A stretch of 63,990 nucleotides of DNA, filler included, from an uncultured Gemmatimonadota bacterium (GTDB lineage Bacteria > GCA-2686955), in assembly GCA_964490075.1 (NCBI GenBank). It is 3 parts of 3 records of this genome, joined end to end, with 100 filler letters (N's around TTAATTAATTAA, not from the genome) between each part and the next. Parts side by side here need not be neighbours in the genome. Positions count along the whole stretch, not along the records: positions 1 to 24,040 come from CAZBBK010000077.1; 2 more parts are not named here. One strand, 5' to 3'. Each line of letters starts with the position of its first letter. Position 1 is the first letter of the stretch. The position numbers and the translations under genes were made by a program. This document shows positions 14,619 through 21,012 of the stretch, one piece after another. The notes below the pieces were generated by a model that worked only from the letters and a program-made list of their open reading frames with translations, was not told where the DNA came from and did no database searches.

Positions 14619-15692
14619 ATGAGCCGCCGCGAGGAAATCGTCGACACGGTGCTCGGTCTGCTGGCCGACACGCCCCTCGAGAAGATCTCGACGCGTCAGG
14701 TCGCGCGCGCGCTGGGCGTGAGCCAGCCGGCCCTGTTTCGCCATTTCCGCAGCCGCGAGGACCTACTGGTGGCAGTGGTGGCCGCGGCACGGGCGGCGCT
14801 GGCCGCAGAGGCCGAGCAGATCTTGCGCCGCGAGCGATCGGGCTTGGGTCGGCTGCGGGCGCTGGCGCGGGTGATCCTGGAGCACGTGGAGCGCAACCCG
14901 GGGCTGCCGCGGCTGATCTTCGGACGCTCCGCGAGCACCGGCAACCCTCTGGCGACGGCGCTGCGCCACCTGGTCGCTATGCAGCGCGCGGCGGTGCGCG
15001 AGCTCTACCTGCAGGGGCGCCGCGAAGGGAGCTTCGCGGCCGAGGGCTCGCCGGATCGCGCCGCGTCGGTGTTCATCGGCACGATCCAGGGAACCGTGCT
15101 GCAGTGGGAGCTGGCCGGACGTCCGGCCGGTCTGTCGAGCGAGGCCGATCCGCTTTTCGATCTCTGGCTGCACGGCGTGAGCAGCCGCGGAGAACCGGCA
15201 CCGGCGGAGCGGGAGGCGCCCGGGCCCGCGCTCCACGGTCTTCCCCCCCCTCCCGTCCTGCGCGAGCTCGACGTCCGTCCGCTCATCGACCGCGGCGAAG
15301 ACCCCCTCGAGACAATTCTGGCGGCGCTCGACGAGACCCCGCGCGGCAGCGTGCTGTTGATCCGTGCGCCCTTCCGGCCGGCGCCCCTGATCGCGCTCCT
15401 GGAAGAGCGCGGCCACGGTGTCGAAGCCGATCCGGTGGAGGGGAAGGAGTGGGCGGTCGAGGTCGCCATCGGCGATCCCGAGATCGTCGACCTGCGCGAC
15501 CTGGAGGCGCCGGAGCCGCTGGAGCGGGTGCTGGAAGCGGCCTCCGCGATGCGCGCCGAGGAGACCTTCCTGGCGCGGGTGCCGCGCATGCCGCGGGCGC
15601 TGCTGCCGATTCTGGCGGAGCGGGGGATCGATCACCAGGTCATGGATCGGGGCGATCGGGGCGCGCTGGTGCTGCTGAGGGCAGAGCCTTGA
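14619..15692 (+). CDS. TetR-family regulator fused to two DUF2249 (SirA-like) domains
   Basis: TetR HTH STRQVARALGVSQPALFRHF; C-terminal LDVRP..P..IL..PF.P.PL and DLRDLEAPEPLERVL repeats. Confidence 0.85.
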   Translation: MSRREEIVDTVLGLLADTPLEKISTRQVARALGVSQPALFRHFRSREDLLVAVVAAARAALAAEAEQILRRERSGLGRLRALARVILEHVERNPGLPRLIFGRSASTGNPLATALRHLVAMQRAAVRELYLQGRREGSFAAEGSPDRAASVFIGTIQGTVLQWELAGRPAGLSSEADPLFDLWLHGVSSRGEPAPAEREAPGPALHGLPPPPVLRELDVRPLIDRGEDPLETILAALDETPRGSVLLIRAPFRPAPLIALLEERGHGVEADPVEGKEWAVEVAIGDPEIVDLRDLEAPEPLERVLEAASAMRAEETFLARVPRMPRALLPILAERGIDHQVMDRGDRGALVLLRAEP

Positions 15693-16972
15693 TCGGTCCA
15701 GGCGCCGATTCCGGCCTGAGCTTCGAGCAGGCTCCCCCGCTGGCGATCCCGGCCAGTTTCTTCGTGACAGCACCGCTGGCCGTGGCCGCGGCGGGCTTCG
15801 TGTTGCTGGCGCATGGCAACCTGCCCTGGCTCTCTCCCTGGGAGCCGAGCGCCGTGGCCCTGGTCCATTTGGGCACTCTGGGCCTGATCACCATGGTGAT
15901 GTTCGGAGCGCTCTACCAGATTCTGCCGGTGGTCGCCGGGGCCGTAGTGCCAGCGCCGCGCTTGGCCCGCGCGGTGCATGCCGGCTTGACTGTGGGCGCC
16001 GCAGCCCTGGCAGCGGGGATGTTGCTAGGCGAAATCGGCCTGCTGTGGTGCGCGACCTTGCTGCTCGGCGCCACGCTTTTGGCCTTCCTGATCCCCACCG
16101 GCATGGCGCTCGCGCGCGCCCAGACCCGCGACGATACAGTGACCGGGATCAAGGTCGCCTGGGGCGCCCTGGCGCTGGCCGCGGCACTGGGAGTCACCCT
16201 GGCGACACTCTATGCCCTCAAGTGGTCGCCCGACCTGCGCCGCGAGCGGCTGATCTGTCACTGGACGCTGGCGGGAATCGGTTGGATCGGCGGGCTGCTC
16301 AGCGCGGTGTCGTGGCAGGTGATCCCGATGTTCTATCTGACGCCTCCCTGCGCCGCGCGCGTGCGCCGCGCGACGCTCGCCCTGCTGTCGGGGACGATTG
16401 TCGCGACGGTCGCGGTGTTCGCGCTGCGCGTGGCACAGCCCTGGCCGCTGCTGGCCGCGGCTCCGGGCGCGGCGGCAGTCTGGATCATCCACCCCCTCTG
16501 GGCACAGCGCGCCCTGTCGGCGCGACGCCGCAAGCGGGTCGACGACAGCATTCTGTTCTGGCGCCTCGGCCTGGCAGTGGCACCGGCGATGCCGGTGCTG
16601 GCCGCGCTCGCCCATCTCTTGCCCGATCCGCGCCTCTCTGCGCTGGCCGGATGGTGCGGCATCTGGGGCTGGGCGGGCCTGATCATCCACGGCATGATGA
16701 GCCGCATCGTGCCCTTTCTGGTCTGGTTTCATCGTCTGGCGCACCTGGTAGGCAAGCAGCCGACCCCAAGCGCCAAGCAGCTCCTGCCGCGGCATCGGTT
16801 GCGCCTCGCATTCGGGCTGCACGCGGCGACCCTGGCAAGCGGATGTGTCGGGATTCTGCTCGGCGAAGCGGCCATCGCTCGCGTCACCGGCGTATTGCTG
16901 GTGCTGACCGGCGCCGCGATGCTGGCCTGGCTGCTGCCGGTGTTGCGCTTTCGGCTAGCCTCGCTCGCGTAG
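15689..16972 (+). CDS. Polytopic membrane protein of the type found with DUF2249/hemerythrin genes
   Basis: TTGA overlap; GLSFEQAPP, HLGTLG, GALYQILPVVAG, RIVPFLVWFH; about 12 hydrophobic segments. Confidence 0.8.
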   Translation: MIGPGADSGLSFEQAPPLAIPASFFVTAPLAVAAAGFVLLAHGNLPWLSPWEPSAVALVHLGTLGLITMVMFGALYQILPVVAGAVVPAPRLARAVHAGLTVGAAALAAGMLLGEIGLLWCATLLLGATLLAFLIPTGMALARAQTRDDTVTGIKVAWGALALAAALGVTLATLYALKWSPDLRRERLICHWTLAGIGWIGGLLSAVSWQVIPMFYLTPPCAARVRRATLALLSGTIVATVAVFALRVAQPWPLLAAAPGAAAVWIIHPLWAQRALSARRRKRVDDSILFWRLGLAVAPAMPVLAALAHLLPDPRLSALAGWCGIWGWAGLIIHGMMSRIVPFLVWFHRLAHLVGKQPTPSAKQLLPRHRLRLAFGLHAATLASGCVGILLGEAAIARVTGVLLVLTGAAMLAWLLPVLRFRLASLA

Positions 16973-17604: not shown

Positions 17605-19629
17605 ATGCTCCTGCCGAGACGGCATCCGCCGCTGCCCGCGATCGCAATTCTGGCACTGATCCAGGCGTCGAGCACCCCGGCCCTGAATCTCGAGCGACTC
17701 TCCGCCACGCGCCTCAGCGTGACCTTCGAGCTGCTCGATGTCGAGCACCACGAGGGGGTGCTGGCGATCCCCGGCGGCCTGGGCGGCACGGCGGTGATCG
17801 ATGTCACCGACCCGCGGCAGCCGGTCGAGCTCAGTCGCTACAGCGACACTCTCTGTCTCTACGGCCGCCTCTACAACACCTTTATCGGACCCGAGCTCAC
17901 CCTGGGCGCCGGCCGCAACTGCCCGCTGGTCCTTCTCGAGCCCGGTCCGGGCTATCACCTCGACGTGGTCGGTCGCCACCAAACAGGAGACGCTTCGTAT
18001 GAGGACGCCGCCGTGCGCGACGACCTGGCGGCGATCGCCGCCCACGACGGGGGACTGGAGCTGATCGATATCAGCGATCCCGGAGCCACGTTTACGGTGG
18101 CGACGGTTCCGCTGACCAATGCCTGGGCGGTGCGCATCGACGGCGACCACGCCTACGTGGCCGACGGCGGCGGCGGCCTGGCGGTGGTCGACATCTCCGA
18201 TCCCTACCAGGCCTTCCTGGCTGGACGCCTGGTCACCAGCGGCGCGGCCAAAGATGTGCGGGTGCGCAACGGTCTGGCCTTTCTCGCGTTGGGAGATGCG
18301 GGAGTGGCCATGATCGACGTCTCCACTCCGAGTCAGCCGGTGCTGGCGGCCGAGTACAACACCACCGGCAACGCCTCGCATCTCGGAGCCAGCGACAGTC
18401 TGGTGGCAGTCGCCGACTGGGACGACGTGGAGATCCTGCGCTACGACCACCAGGGCATGCTGGAGCTAACCGGCAGCAAGAAGACCGGCGGCCGGGTGAT
18501 GGGCGTCGAGATCGTGAACGACGTGGTGTACGTGGCCGAGTGGAGTGAGCTTCACATTTACAGCTACGGCCCCATCGCCGGACCTGATCTCGACCTCGAC
18601 TTGGTCGACATCAACTTCCCGAAGACCGAGGTGGGCGCCAGCCGCGACACTACGATCCAGCTGAGCAACAGTGGCGGTTCCACGCTGACCATCGAGTCGA
18701 TCGACATCCCGCACGCCGACTTGGCGCTCGACCCCGCCGGGCCCTTCAGCATCATGGCGGGCGGTTCCAGAGACCTCACCATCACCTACACCGCCAGCGA
18801 GGACGAGATCGACATCCGCTGGTTCACGATTCACTCGAACGACACCGATGATTCGGCCTTTCAGTTCTCCGTGCAAGGCAACAGCCGCGATCTGAACGTC
18901 GGAGATCCGGCTCCAGACTTCACCATTCCGGTGCTGGACGGCGCACCGGTGACACTTTCCGAGCTGCGCGGCAGCGTGGTGGTGCTGACCTTCTTCGCCT
19001 CGTGGTGACCGGTCTGCGGTCCGCAGTTGGTGGACATCGAGAACGGGCTCTGGGAGACCTACCGCGATCAGGGACTGCTGGTCTATGGCGCCAATCGCGA
19101 GAGCGAGCCGATTCTGCGCGACTTCATCGACCAGACCGGCATCACTTTCCCGGTGCTGCTCGACGAGCCGGCCGGCTACTACCTGCTGGGCGGCCTTTCT
19201 CCCTATCCGCGCGACTTCATCATCGACGCCGATGGAATCGTGCAATATGCGGACACGGAGTACCGTCCGACCGAGATGTCGGCGATCATCGAGCGTTTGC
19301 TGCCCACCGCGGTCGAGGACGATGGGGTGGCGGCGGACGCGCCCCCCGCGACACGCCCGGTGCTCGCTCAAAACCTCCCCAACCCCTTCAACCCCAGCAC
19401 CACCATCCGCTTCGACCTGCCGGCGGACGGGCCCGCCGAGCTGACGATCTTCGACATCGGCGGGCGGCGGGTGCGCACCTTGGTCGCGGACAACCTCCCT
19501 GCCGGCTCCCACGCCCGGCGCTGGGACGGACGCGACGAACGCGGCGCGGAGCTGCCCTCGGGCATCTACCTCTACCGGCTGCGATCCGGGGGTATCGAAG
19601 CGCTTCGCAGGATGGTTCTGCTGCGCTGA
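17605..19629 (+). CDS. Probable selenoprotein: LVIVD repeats + Ig-like domain + TlpA/AhpC-type redoxin (UxxC) + FlgD-like C-terminal domain
   Basis: ORFs 17593-19008 and 19027-19629 share a frame; read-through of TGA 19006-19008 gives [20 protein letters not shown]-terminus [28 protein letters not shown]. Confidence 0.88.
19008..19031 (+). promoter_or_regulatory. Candidate bacterial SECIS hairpin
   Basis: ACCGG-(bulged T)-CTGCG-GTC-CGCAG-TTGGT directly 3' of the TGA; the loop is closer to the UGA than usual. Confidence 0.45.
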
Positions 19630-19698
19630 ATTCGGGTTTCTCTCCCCGCTCCCATGCTATCTTGGAGTCGAATTCGAACTCCAACATGGGAGGGATCC

Positions 19699-21012
19699 AT
19701 GTCCCGAAAATTCGTCATAAGTTGCGAATCCACACTGCGGATCGTGGCGCCTCTGCTCGTTTTCGGCGCGAGCGCCGCCCCCGCCGTCCCGAACGCCTGG
19801 TCCTTGCTGGGCGACGACCGTGGCGACGGCCGCTATGTCCGTGAAGACTGGGACCTGATCGCGGCGCTGCACGACACCCAAGGACGCGAGATCGTGGCCC
19901 ATTGCACGCGCATGAGCGACGAGGTCTGGGATCACCAGATCACGGTGGAGCGCTGGGACGAGGCCACGCAGAGCTGGCTCCCGCTCGGCCAGGCGTTCGG
20001 CGGCGGCGAGGATGGCGCGAATGCGCCCTCGCTGGCACTGGCGGGCGATTGGCTCTATGTCGCCTACATCCAGCGCAATTCCGGCACCGGAGTGTGGGGC
20101 GAGCTGAAGGTGAAGCGTTACGATGAGCCGGGCGATCTGTGGGTCGAGATCGGCCAAAGCGTGCTCAATGTCGACCCTCTGGAGAACGCCTGGGCGCCGA
20201 GCCTGGTCGCGGTCGATCAGGCCGGGATCGATGTCGCCGTGGCCTGGGAGGAGGACGGCGGCAGCGCGGTCAAGGCCTGGGTGAAGGCACTGCGCGACGA
20301 CCAGTGGCTGCTGCTCGGCGGCGGCCCCCTGAATGTGGCGCCCAATCGAGACGCCGAAGATGTCGAGCTGGCCTTCGACGGCGATCGGATCGTCGCAACC
20401 TGGAGCGAGGAGCACAACGACCACCAGGCGATCCACGTCAAGGCGGTGGGGAGCGACAATCGCTGGACCGCCTTGGGCGACGATCTCGCGCCGGGCCAGT
20501 ATGGCCACAAGCCGAGCATCGCTTTCGACGGCGCGGCCCTCCACGTGGCCTACGGCAGCTACGATGAGGCGCTCGGAAACGCGCGCCTGGTACTCGTCAA
20601 ACGCTGGACCGACAGCGCCTGGCAGCTGCTCGGCGGCCCCCTGAACGAATACTCGTCGAGCGACGACACGTGGGCGAGCTGCCACCGCATCGCGCTGCGG
20701 GGCGGACGGCTGTGGGTCGCCTGGTGCGAGTCGCAAGGCAGCGGCAAGGCGGCTGATCTCTTCGTCAAGAGCTACAGCGGCTGCGAGTGGGCAATCGATC
20801 CCGGGAGCCGCGCGCGCCGCAGCCTCGACGTCGATCCGGAGCTCGATGTCGGTCAGCTCGCCCTCGCCGGCGGACTGGCGTCGCTCCTGGTCGGCTTCGT
20901 CGAGGAGGGCGCGATCTACGTCGAGCGACGCGACCCGGGTCCACCGGTCGAGTGCATCGGGGCCGATCGATCGGCGCCCGCGCGCGCGGTGGCCGGAGGG
21001 CCCATGTGGTGA
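19699..21012 (+). CDS. Secreted repeat (probable beta-propeller) protein
   Basis: GGAGGG RBS; signal-like leader; repeats VKRW...W..LGG.LN, PSLA, VAW.E. Confidence 0.7.
   Translation: MSRKFVISCESTLRIVAPLLVFGASAAPAVPNAWSLLGDDRGDGRYVREDWDLIAALHDTQGREIVAHCTRMSDEVWDHQITVERWDEATQSWLPLGQAFGGGEDGANAPSLALAGDWLYVAYIQRNSGTGVWGELKVKRYDEPGDLWVEIGQSVLNVDPLENAWAPSLVAVDQAGIDVAVAWEEDGGSAVKAWVKALRDDQWLLLGGGPLNVAPNRDAEDVELAFDGDRIVATWSEEHNDHQAIHVKAVGSDNRWTALGDDLAPGQYGHKPSIAFDGAALHVAYGSYDEALGNARLVLVKRWTDSAWQLLGGPLNEYSSSDDTWASCHRIALRGGRLWVAWCESQGSGKAADLFVKSYSGCEWAIDPGSRARRSLDVDPELDVGQLALAGGLASLLVGFVEEGAIYVERRDPGPPVECIGADRSAPARAVAGGPMW

Follow-up and report, generated by a model that had tools for sequence, protein, structure and literature searches.

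Selenocysteine (Sec) forms of peroxiredoxin-like (Prx-like) thiol:disulfide oxidoreductases (PF00578; UxxC or UxxU) and TlpA-like UxxC proteins (cd02966) are listed as predicted selenoprotein families in the tables of PMC9312934 and PMC13188914, as far as the accessible parts of these two sources go, and are named there by their redox domain alone. The accessible part of PMC13188914 also states that nearly all selenoproteins have commoner cysteine (Cys) homologues. Here, we analysed a stretch of 63,990 nucleotides from an uncultured Gemmatimonadota bacterium (GCA_964490075.1), hereafter called the window, in which a gene at 17605..19629 on the + strand very probably encodes a further Sec redoxin. 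Since the Sec Prx-like and TlpA-like UxxC families have long been listed, this gene is of a known kind at the domain level. It has in common with them the thioredoxin fold, a UxxC motif with Sec at the attacking position, discovery through a TGA codon paired with Cys, and truncation by gene callers; an earlier note on this DNA had already stated that such redoxins exist and are often split. It differs in that the domain is embedded in a 674-residue protein composed of a propeller, an immunoglobulin-like (Ig-like) domain, the redoxin and a C-terminal tail, in its invariant motif U-P-[VAT]-C-x-P-[EQ], and in that no Cys orthologue was found in the searches detailed below. Only positions 1-24040 of the window belong to the contig that holds the gene; positions 24041-63990 are N or come from elsewhere and provide no genomic context.

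A second group of relatives comprises ResA, TlpA and StoA (4nmu, 1st9, 3erw, 2ls5), which share with the window protein a WCxxC motif at the N terminus of helix 1 (with Sec in first place here), an acidic or amide residue three positions past the second Cys and a loop rich in Pro, aligned with PLPT of ResA. In contrast, these proteins carry Cys, are small membrane-anchored or lipoprotein domains that receive their electrons from CcdA or DsbD, and have no propeller, no Ig-like domain and no tail for the type IX secretion system (T9SS). NF041054 also describes a ResA-like selenoprotein within a longer protein, but its motif is WAxxUGC, whereas ours reads FFASWUPVC. No curated NCBIfam selenoprotein model was reached by the read-through protein (WAxxUGC_long, 32.5 bits versus 300), and membership of NF041054 was rejected on this score and on the motif SWUPVC. 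Finally, T9SS cargo proteins of about 1,100 amino acids with LVIVD propellers and FlgD-Ig or type-A tails, such as P0044 and P0061 (both named "T9SS type A sorting domain-containing protein"), resemble the window protein in propeller repeat, sorting tail and phyla; they differ in matching PF09826 and in having neither a redoxin domain nor Sec.

We found no published description of a propeller-Ig-redoxin-tail selenoprotein, of its targeting by T9SS or dockerin modules or of its lacking Cys form, and the words "multidomain" and "secreted" are absent from the accessible part of the 2026 review PMC13188914; BSepDB and the deep-Sep tables may hold members. The obligate-Sec, surface-targeted multidomain architecture appears to be undescribed so far. 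The earlier note had called this architecture unusual; it is, however, not a one-off, as a family over several phyla shares it.

One gene across two open reading frames

Two open reading frames (ORFs) of the window, 17593/17605..19008 and 19027..19629, lie in the same frame and are parted by one TGA at 19006-19008, in the context TTC TTC GCC TCG TGG TGA CCG GTC TGC GGT CCG CAG TTG (FFASW-U-PVC-GPQL). Translation of this TGA as U from ATG 17605 (the other candidate start is GTG 17593) yielded 674 residues up to the true stop of the selenoprotein gene, another TGA (19627-19629). The two ORFs are one gene of 674 codons plus stop (17605..19629, + strand), with co-linear orthologues. The putative Sec codon (19006..19008, +) corresponds to residue 468 (U468), and the predicted resolving Cys of the UxxC motif, C471, is encoded at 19015..19017 (+). 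C471 is invariant in a 42-sequence family alignment and aligns with the second Cys of the ResA CxxC, while U468 aligns with the first Cys of the WCxxC in 2ls5 and ResA 4nmu. The observations from which the earlier note had set out, namely the single TGA between two frames, its position at the first Cys of a WCxxC motif and the length of the read-through product, were all reproduced. Logan contigs of X2 (18683-19198) and X4 (18805-19140), two additional samples from the same study, span the TGA with 0 differences, indicating that it is no assembly slip; the TGC or TGT reads that the earlier note had asked about are not seen in them. Contigs of X1, which may itself be the assembly source, likewise show no differing letter at the codon, and those of X3 do not cover it.

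In a further step, the family was collected from one genome per GTDB species using a propeller peptide as pattern, so that the scan was blind to the active site. This yielded 91 stretches confirmed by tblastn, from which 79 loci were kept; their genomes are labelled Gemmatimonadota, Glassbacteria, Fidelibacterota/Neomarinimicrobiota (Marinimicrobia), Krumholzibacteriota, Lentisphaeria or "bacterium". All 81 family sites in 78 of the 79 loci are TGA (TGC, TGT, TAA and TAG, 0), giving 82/82 sites with the window included, and in the 79th locus (L089) tblastn placed a stop at the same column. TGA is also found at this column in three genomes of the same family. The TGA is conserved in the family, and the frame beyond it stays open for 165-310 codons wherever the contig permits. 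Two orthologues of 90% identity each share the encoded amino acid with the window gene at 94/105 codons counted from the TGA, and 35 of these 94 codons are synonymously changed. This indicates that the downstream frame is translated and under selection; the decay that the earlier note had considered is not seen.

The public databases give a different version of these genes. In total, 57 database proteins terminate exactly one residue ahead of the Sec. Many matches in a word-based protein search covered the first two thirds of the query alone, and of those with 400-560 amino acids, 54/55 terminate at ...FF(A/T)x(W), one residue ahead of the Sec column; in the remaining one, P0017, the Ig domain and the front half of the redoxin are missing. 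Among the best 150 HMMER matches, a list dominated by giant LVIVD proteins, the family representatives all end at query residue 467. Taken at face value, the gene callers' version means that the TGA is a genuine stop, leaving either a pseudogene or a propeller-Ig protein with half a redoxin, followed by a 200-amino-acid product from a TTG start that does exist at 19027. However, such a stop would cut the thioredoxin fold within its active-site motif, and neither half could fold. Moreover, the residues P-V-C-G-P-Q between the TGA and the TTG are conserved, with C471 and P473 invariant, and TGA alone occupies the column, whereas the true stops of family genes are a mix of TGA, TAG and TAA. With downstream changes that are mostly synonymous and a gene that co-occurs with SelA (see below), a genuine stop is very improbable.

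No Cys form was found in the best 120 of 629 word-search matches, the best 150 HMMER matches, 256 fetched proteins and the 79 loci, a search whose scope leaves aside lower-ranked matches and 11 of the 91 confirmed stretches. Judged from these sequences, the family is apparently obligate-Sec, conserved and spread over several phyla. Three close orthologues, L014 (G002), L018 (G001) and P0017, have internal deletions: in one, the propeller is partly gone, and in the other two, the front half of the redoxin including UxxC is gone and the frame is joined to the tail. Collapsed assembly or decay of the copies may explain these deletions. L075 and L106 contain four and five tandem TGA-redoxin sites, made up of two family-gene copies and WUP(T/S)CN domains, each with its own hairpin, and may represent multi-Sec proteins or gene arrays.

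The genome contains the Sec machinery. In an assembly of 136 contigs that is 95% complete, we detected SelA (430 bits), SelB including its C-terminal part (378 bits versus a cut-off of 242), SelD (318 bits) with an in-frame TGA of its own in PAGG-U-ARK, and a tRNA-Sec with anticodon tca, that is, all four components that the earlier note had proposed to look for. In selD (G000 C65:32509-33429, - strand, locus L010), an 8-bp hairpin with the loop GUC comes after the TGA within PAGG-U-ARKLG, at 30 nucleotides from the U of the UGA. SelA was found in 47/50 genomes carrying a family gene (50 of 72 distinct-genome loci were taken) compared to 13/36 "same domain" genomes of the relatives set; the carriers are all metagenome-assembled genomes, and the three misses may therefore be gaps. 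Among the matches listed, SelA was also present in 10/10 genomes with a TGA-containing redoxin match. Because related genomes are not independent, this co-occurrence is reported as a pattern and without a statistic.

The inserted residue is not identifiable from sequence alone, which leaves room for a reading in which Trp, Cys or Gly, all standard amino acids, is inserted at the UGA through reassignment or near-cognate suppression. UGA is not reassigned throughout the genome, since TGA ends this gene (19627-19629) and many family genes. The column is that of the catalytic Cys of WCxxC, and the full Sec pathway, the SECIS-like hairpin tied to TGA sites (see below) and the co-occurrence with SelA likewise speak against insertion of a standard amino acid, to which we attach hardly any weight. 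We consider it very probable, from the sequences compared here, that the UGA at 19006-19008 encodes Sec and that the gene is a genuine selenoprotein gene.

A SECIS hairpin that follows the TGA

We then investigated the RNA downstream of the UGA, where a SECIS (Sec insertion sequence) element is present. Its upper stem-loop lies at 19019..19035 (+ strand), made up of GUCCGC (5' arm, 19019-19024), AGUUG (loop, 19025-19029) and GUGGAC (3' arm, 19030-19035); a candidate lower stem extends over 19009-19046. The stem has 6 bp, 16 nucleotides separate the UGA from the loop, and the folding energy is -8.9 kcal/mol. For bacterial SECIS (bSECIS) elements, the accessible part of PMC13188914 gives a loop of 3-9 nucleotides, a stem of 4-16 bp, a G in the first two loop positions followed by G or U, a distance of 16-37 nucleotides from the UGA and a minimum free energy of -7.5 kcal/mol or below, and the window hairpin agrees with all four criteria of that source.

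Conservation of synonymous sites was quantified in 81 distinct family sequences, and these sites are frozen inside the hairpin alone. Third-base entropy falls from 1.94 bits (codon +1) and 1.84 bits (codon +2) to 0.36 (+4), 0.10 (+5) and 0 bits (+6 and +8). Indeed, CCG encodes Pro +5 in 80/81 sequences, whereas all four Pro codons occur at +1; TCG encodes Ser +8 in 72/72, and Glu/Gln +6 always ends in G, while at Glu +11 GAA occurs 54 times and GAG 22 times. The freeze became clear only with the 81 sequences: against the two close orthologues, the synonymous rate of codons 0-14 was only slightly under that elsewhere (3/13 and 4/11). In 82 sequences, 85.5% of the stem pair cells are paired, a value reached by 0/500 shuffles. 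The loop is closed by pair 19-25, for which 73 sequences have G-U and the 9 of the window's clade have C-G, both sides having changed; the same G-to-C substitution accounts for the re-paired stem and for the Gln that this clade has at residue 474 in place of Glu.

The hairpin follows the TGA and not the peptide motif. At secondary redoxin sites in family loci, it was present at 8/10 Sec-type but only 1/18 Cys-type sites, although the compared sites are near-identical in motif (WUTNCQAE versus WCTNCQAE). It was present in 0/4 Cys-type CxxC paralogues of this genome, a test from which 3 of 7 paralogues were excluded for want of a CxxC. A generic hairpin was found at 7/8 TGA sites of this genome (7 redoxin sites and selD; the miss is C1:43223), compared to 10.0% of 40,000 random genomic TGAs; the form with an AG[GU] loop, a criterion set after the data were seen, occurs at 0.34% of them. 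The paralogous TGA-redoxin genes of this genome show a like geometry on unrelated stems, namely GUGCGG-AGUUG-CCGCAC on C38, GGUCUGG-AGGUU-CCAGACC for two C1 genes and UGCUGG-AGGCU-CCAGCA on C68, while the C52 gene has an AGUU loop positioned further downstream.

These paralogues comprise at least six more thioredoxin-fold genes of this genome with one in-frame TGA at the active site (L112-L117; G000 C38:37311-37667, C1:204561-204887, C1:214243-214518, C1:43223-43579, C68:13530-13889 and C52:28734-29009), five of the six with a SECIS-like hairpin. Their motifs are WUSSC, WUPIC (twice), WUGSC, TUGGC and GUVVC. Two lie in read-through frames of 872 and 888 amino acids, one lies 3.6 kb from selA, and three consist of a signal peptide, a redoxin and a C-terminal beta-rich domain. 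In an unrelated genome (G039 C1:108971-114693), seven redoxin-domain matches with one TGA each are found within 6 kb.

Domain architecture and predicted export

The domains of the read-through protein were identified with curated models. In Pfam, LVIVD (77.9 bits, cut-off 20.2), AhpC-TSA (80.7, cut-off 26), Redoxin (72.9, cut-off 26.6) and FlgD_ig (38.1, cut-off 27) scored above their thresholds, and in NCBIfam, TIGR04183 reached 25.4 bits versus a cut-off of 23 on the protein and 29.2 bits in the genome scan. The Ig-like domain stayed under the curated cut-offs (PF22544, 22.8 versus 25.5; choice_anch_D, 35.9 versus 45); the corresponding region of homologues matches PF22544, PF07610 or PF15780. 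An AlphaFold model built on the 42-sequence read-through alignment had a mean predicted local distance difference test (pLDDT) value of 88.7 and a predicted template modelling score (pTM) of 0.77. It displayed an N-terminal helix (residues 10-21), propeller strands (27-323), a beta-sandwich (329-424), a thioredoxin fold (432-565) and a C-terminal sandwich (599-672), with a linker at 566-591, between redoxin and sorting tail, that is of low confidence and disordered. Foldseek matches of the full model were limited to PorZ, a component of the T9SS, and generic propellers with 7-8 blades; their template modelling (TM) scores on the query were 0.26-0.38, and they gave no functional lead.

All features lie on the + strand. 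A probable N-terminal signal peptide (about residues 1-23; 17605..17673), read from RR and the hydrophobic stretch [12 protein letters not shown], coincides with the helix of the model. It is followed by the LVIVD-repeat beta-propeller (about residues 27-323; 17683..18573), with all-beta blades at pLDDT >90, and by the Ig-like beta-sandwich (about residues 329-424; 18589..18876). The TlpA/ResA-like thioredoxin-fold redoxin with the motif U468-P-V-C471 occupies about residues 432-565 (18898..19299), with the AhpC-TSA (PF00578) and Redoxin (PF08534) matches covering residues 432-560; the propeller match is PF08309. A T9SS type-A C-terminal sorting domain, or FlgD-Ig-like sandwich, ends the protein (residues 592-674; 19378..19626). 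Of the makeup given in the earlier note, the LVIVD propeller, the redoxin and the FlgD-like tail stood above the Pfam cut-offs, while the Ig-like domain is seen as a beta-sandwich in the model; the tail was refined to a T9SS type-A sorting domain.

Against solved structures, the redoxin matched 2ls5 (5e-21) and ResA 4nmu (5e-18) best, in a range extending to 2e-7. In the model, U468 immediately precedes helix 471-489 and C471 stands at its start. Q474 aligns with the Glu three residues past the second Cys in solved ResA/TlpA relatives; this residue is Glu in most of the family and Gln in the window's clade. In the 42-sequence alignment, U468, P469, C471, P473, D477, S532, P533, D537 and D541 are invariant in the redoxin, and E133, H147, W174, D271-W-D-D-x-E276 and R297 in the propeller; P535, which aligns with the PLPT loop of ResA, is at least 90% conserved. 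S532, P533 and P535 may belong to a cis-Pro loop facing the active site. Peroxiredoxin (AhpC/Bcp) identity was rejected, since the motif PxxxTxxC is absent (U468 is preceded by [12 protein letters not shown], in which no Thr has a Pro four positions ahead of it) and the best solved matches are ResA/TlpA and not Prx.

Regarding export, the genome contains T9SS parts. PorU sortase (519 bits versus 420) and SprA (522 versus 200) were detected, and type-A tails (TIGR04183) stand at the ends of 38 large frames, 37 of them above cut-off. In the family's most distant clade, the propeller-Ig-Sec-redoxin core is retained, and a double DxNxDGxxNxLD repeat, which we take to be dockerin-like, stands in place of the T9SS domain. 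Two different extracellular anchors on one core would argue for a surface or secreted location. In this clade (L094-L111, e.g., L096 2387-4312), the Sec is preceded by FFAP(N/G/M/L) and not by FFxxW. The earlier note had left the choice between surface and periplasm open; because the tail is a T9SS type-A domain and the genome encodes PorU and SprA, the surface is likelier than the periplasm, and the sequence features place the selenoprotein probably at the cell surface. At 19375-19436, across the PNPFNP start of the sorting tail, contig depth rises from ~9 to ~300, since dozens of other contigs share this short motif; such a rise is consistent with many community genes using this tail.

Gene neighbourhood, proposed chemistry and significance

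The neighbours of the gene in the window are an Asn-synthase-like gene, a sulfotransferase, a short-chain dehydrogenase/reductase, an esterase and a beta-helix protein, and neither a redox partner nor CcdA was found beside it in this neighbourhood. The flanking frames at 15500-16972 (+) and 19654-21012 (+) have no Pfam match; the upstream one is polytopic membrane-protein-like, and the downstream one, of 452 amino acids, has a signal-peptide-like start. Many loci of other lineages have a further, smaller TlpA-like redoxin gene next to the family gene, up- or downstream (L044, L049, L050, L056, L060, L062 (4423-4959), L063, L070, L072, L081, L086, L043, L048, L067 and L082). Both Cys forms (WCPGC, WCTNC), some with a T9SS tail of their own, and Sec forms (WUTNC, WUIFC, WUSFC) of this gene occur. 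The window's clade has no such adjoining gene. In a scan of the 58 nearest downstream ORFs (60 upstream ORFs lay outside it), 11/58 matched AhpC-TSA, 4 of these 11 with a T9SS tail too, and 4 more of the 58 showed the tail alone, two of them being Sec forms cut at their own TGA. These ORFs were the longest non-overlapping ones, so spurious antisense frames are possible in GC-rich loci, and that of L062 was chosen by hand. A redoxin gene directly downstream in other lineages hints at a two-protein relay, and the adjoining redoxin may be the redox partner of the selenoprotein. A DUF3179 gene lies directly downstream of the family gene in L052 (3485-4507) and L078 (4467-5495); DUF3179 itself is among the selenoprotein families in the accessible review tables.

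The attack-and-resolve chemistry of ResA and TlpA is established for Cys enzymes, and the window protein probably works in the same way. SelB and Sec-tRNA(Sec) would decode the UGA at 19006-19008 as Sec, directed by the hairpin that starts 13 nucleotides after the UGA and presents the apical loop AGUUG. A Sec-type signal peptide would take the 674-residue protein to the periplasm, where the type-A C-terminal domain would hand it to type IX secretion for surface display or release. The low-pKa selenolate of U468 would then attack the substrate at a disulfide or at some other oxidised form of sulfur or selenium, C471 would resolve the mixed selenylsulfide to give an internal Se-S bond, and a partner reductant would re-reduce this bond and regenerate the enzyme; the LVIVD propeller and the Ig-like domain probably hold or position the substrate. 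By analogy with its Cys relatives, disulfide/selenylsulfide oxidoreductase activity is somewhat favoured, which retains the thiol oxidoreductase function suggested in the earlier note.

A true selenoprotein could also have another role: it might act in the periplasm, served by a CcdA/DsbD relay and before or without export by T9SS, work as a selenol peroxidase or as a scavenger, or bind sulfur, selenium or metal species. Three DsbD_TM genes are indeed present in the genome, none of them beside the selenoprotein gene; in about a third of family loci, a second TlpA-like redoxin is encoded directly downstream, and some of these have a signal peptide only (L062 4423-4959), the AhpC-TSA match of the protein fits peroxidase-like chemistry, and many Sec sites contact metals according to the accessible part of PMC13188914. 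However, the Prx signature PxxxTxxC is absent, the sequence reading [13 protein letters not shown], the C-terminal modules, be they T9SS tails or dockerin-like, point to an extracellular destination, and 4/11 redoxin neighbours carry a T9SS tail too. We consider such a role unlikely, yet far from negligible.

A Sec-decoded, exported propeller-redoxin oxidoreductase is, in our view, the likely overall explanation, and several points weigh against it. On the RNA side, an Rfam scan of 18900-19200 (E <= 10) gave a chance snoRNA match and no SECIS family. The folding energy of the hairpin is ordinary for GC-rich sequence (z = -0.14) and the z-scores downstream of the TGA are insignificant (-0.14, 0.42 and 0.60), so stability was not used as evidence. 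Covariation is thin, as most stem pairs are invariant and both sides have changed in only 3/7 pairs, and sliding the 3' partner by -1 gave a similar covariation score (0.114 versus 0.105). RNA and protein constraint are partly confounded, since the invariant stretch also encodes the conserved P-E/Q-x-S/A-D. On the protein side, no full-length Cys orthologue was found in the searches above, which limits the classical Sec/Cys pair to the redoxin domain, and the PorV-like matches in the genome are below the cut-off (best 76.6 versus 250, one of them just after porU). DsbD_TM proteins act at the inner membrane, and we know of no electron supply for a TlpA-like reductase outside the outer membrane.

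A broader proposal, which we regard as possible but doubtful, would make the window protein the type member of an obligate-Sec family of extracellular oxidoreductases with T9SS or dockerin-like anchors in marine phyla of the Fibrobacteres-Chlorobi-Bacteroidetes kind. With a co-exported redoxin, such enzymes might form a selenol/thiol relay beyond the outer membrane, acting on disulfide-cross-linked organic matter, polysulfide or elemental sulfur, or metalloids, and this would be the first T9SS-secreted selenoenzyme, with Sec never replaced by Cys.

The gene is of interest for its obligate Sec, its SECIS element nearly frozen across phyla, its predicted extracellular targeting and its systematic mis-annotation. 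If the Sec reading is true, the truncated "hypothetical protein" of at least 57 database entries and 79 species-level genomes represents the front two thirds of a selenoprotein, and selenoproteome counts would be too low for Marinimicrobia/Fidelibacterota, Krumholzibacteriota and Gemmatimonadota-labelled marine lineages. TGA at every examined site, together with the nearly frozen SECIS, would then provide a case for studying why Sec is kept. Moreover, a Sec redox centre on T9SS- or dockerin-type cargo would imply selenium-dependent chemistry at or beyond the outer membrane, and extracellular thiol/selenol redox chemistry in marine bacteria would become directly testable.

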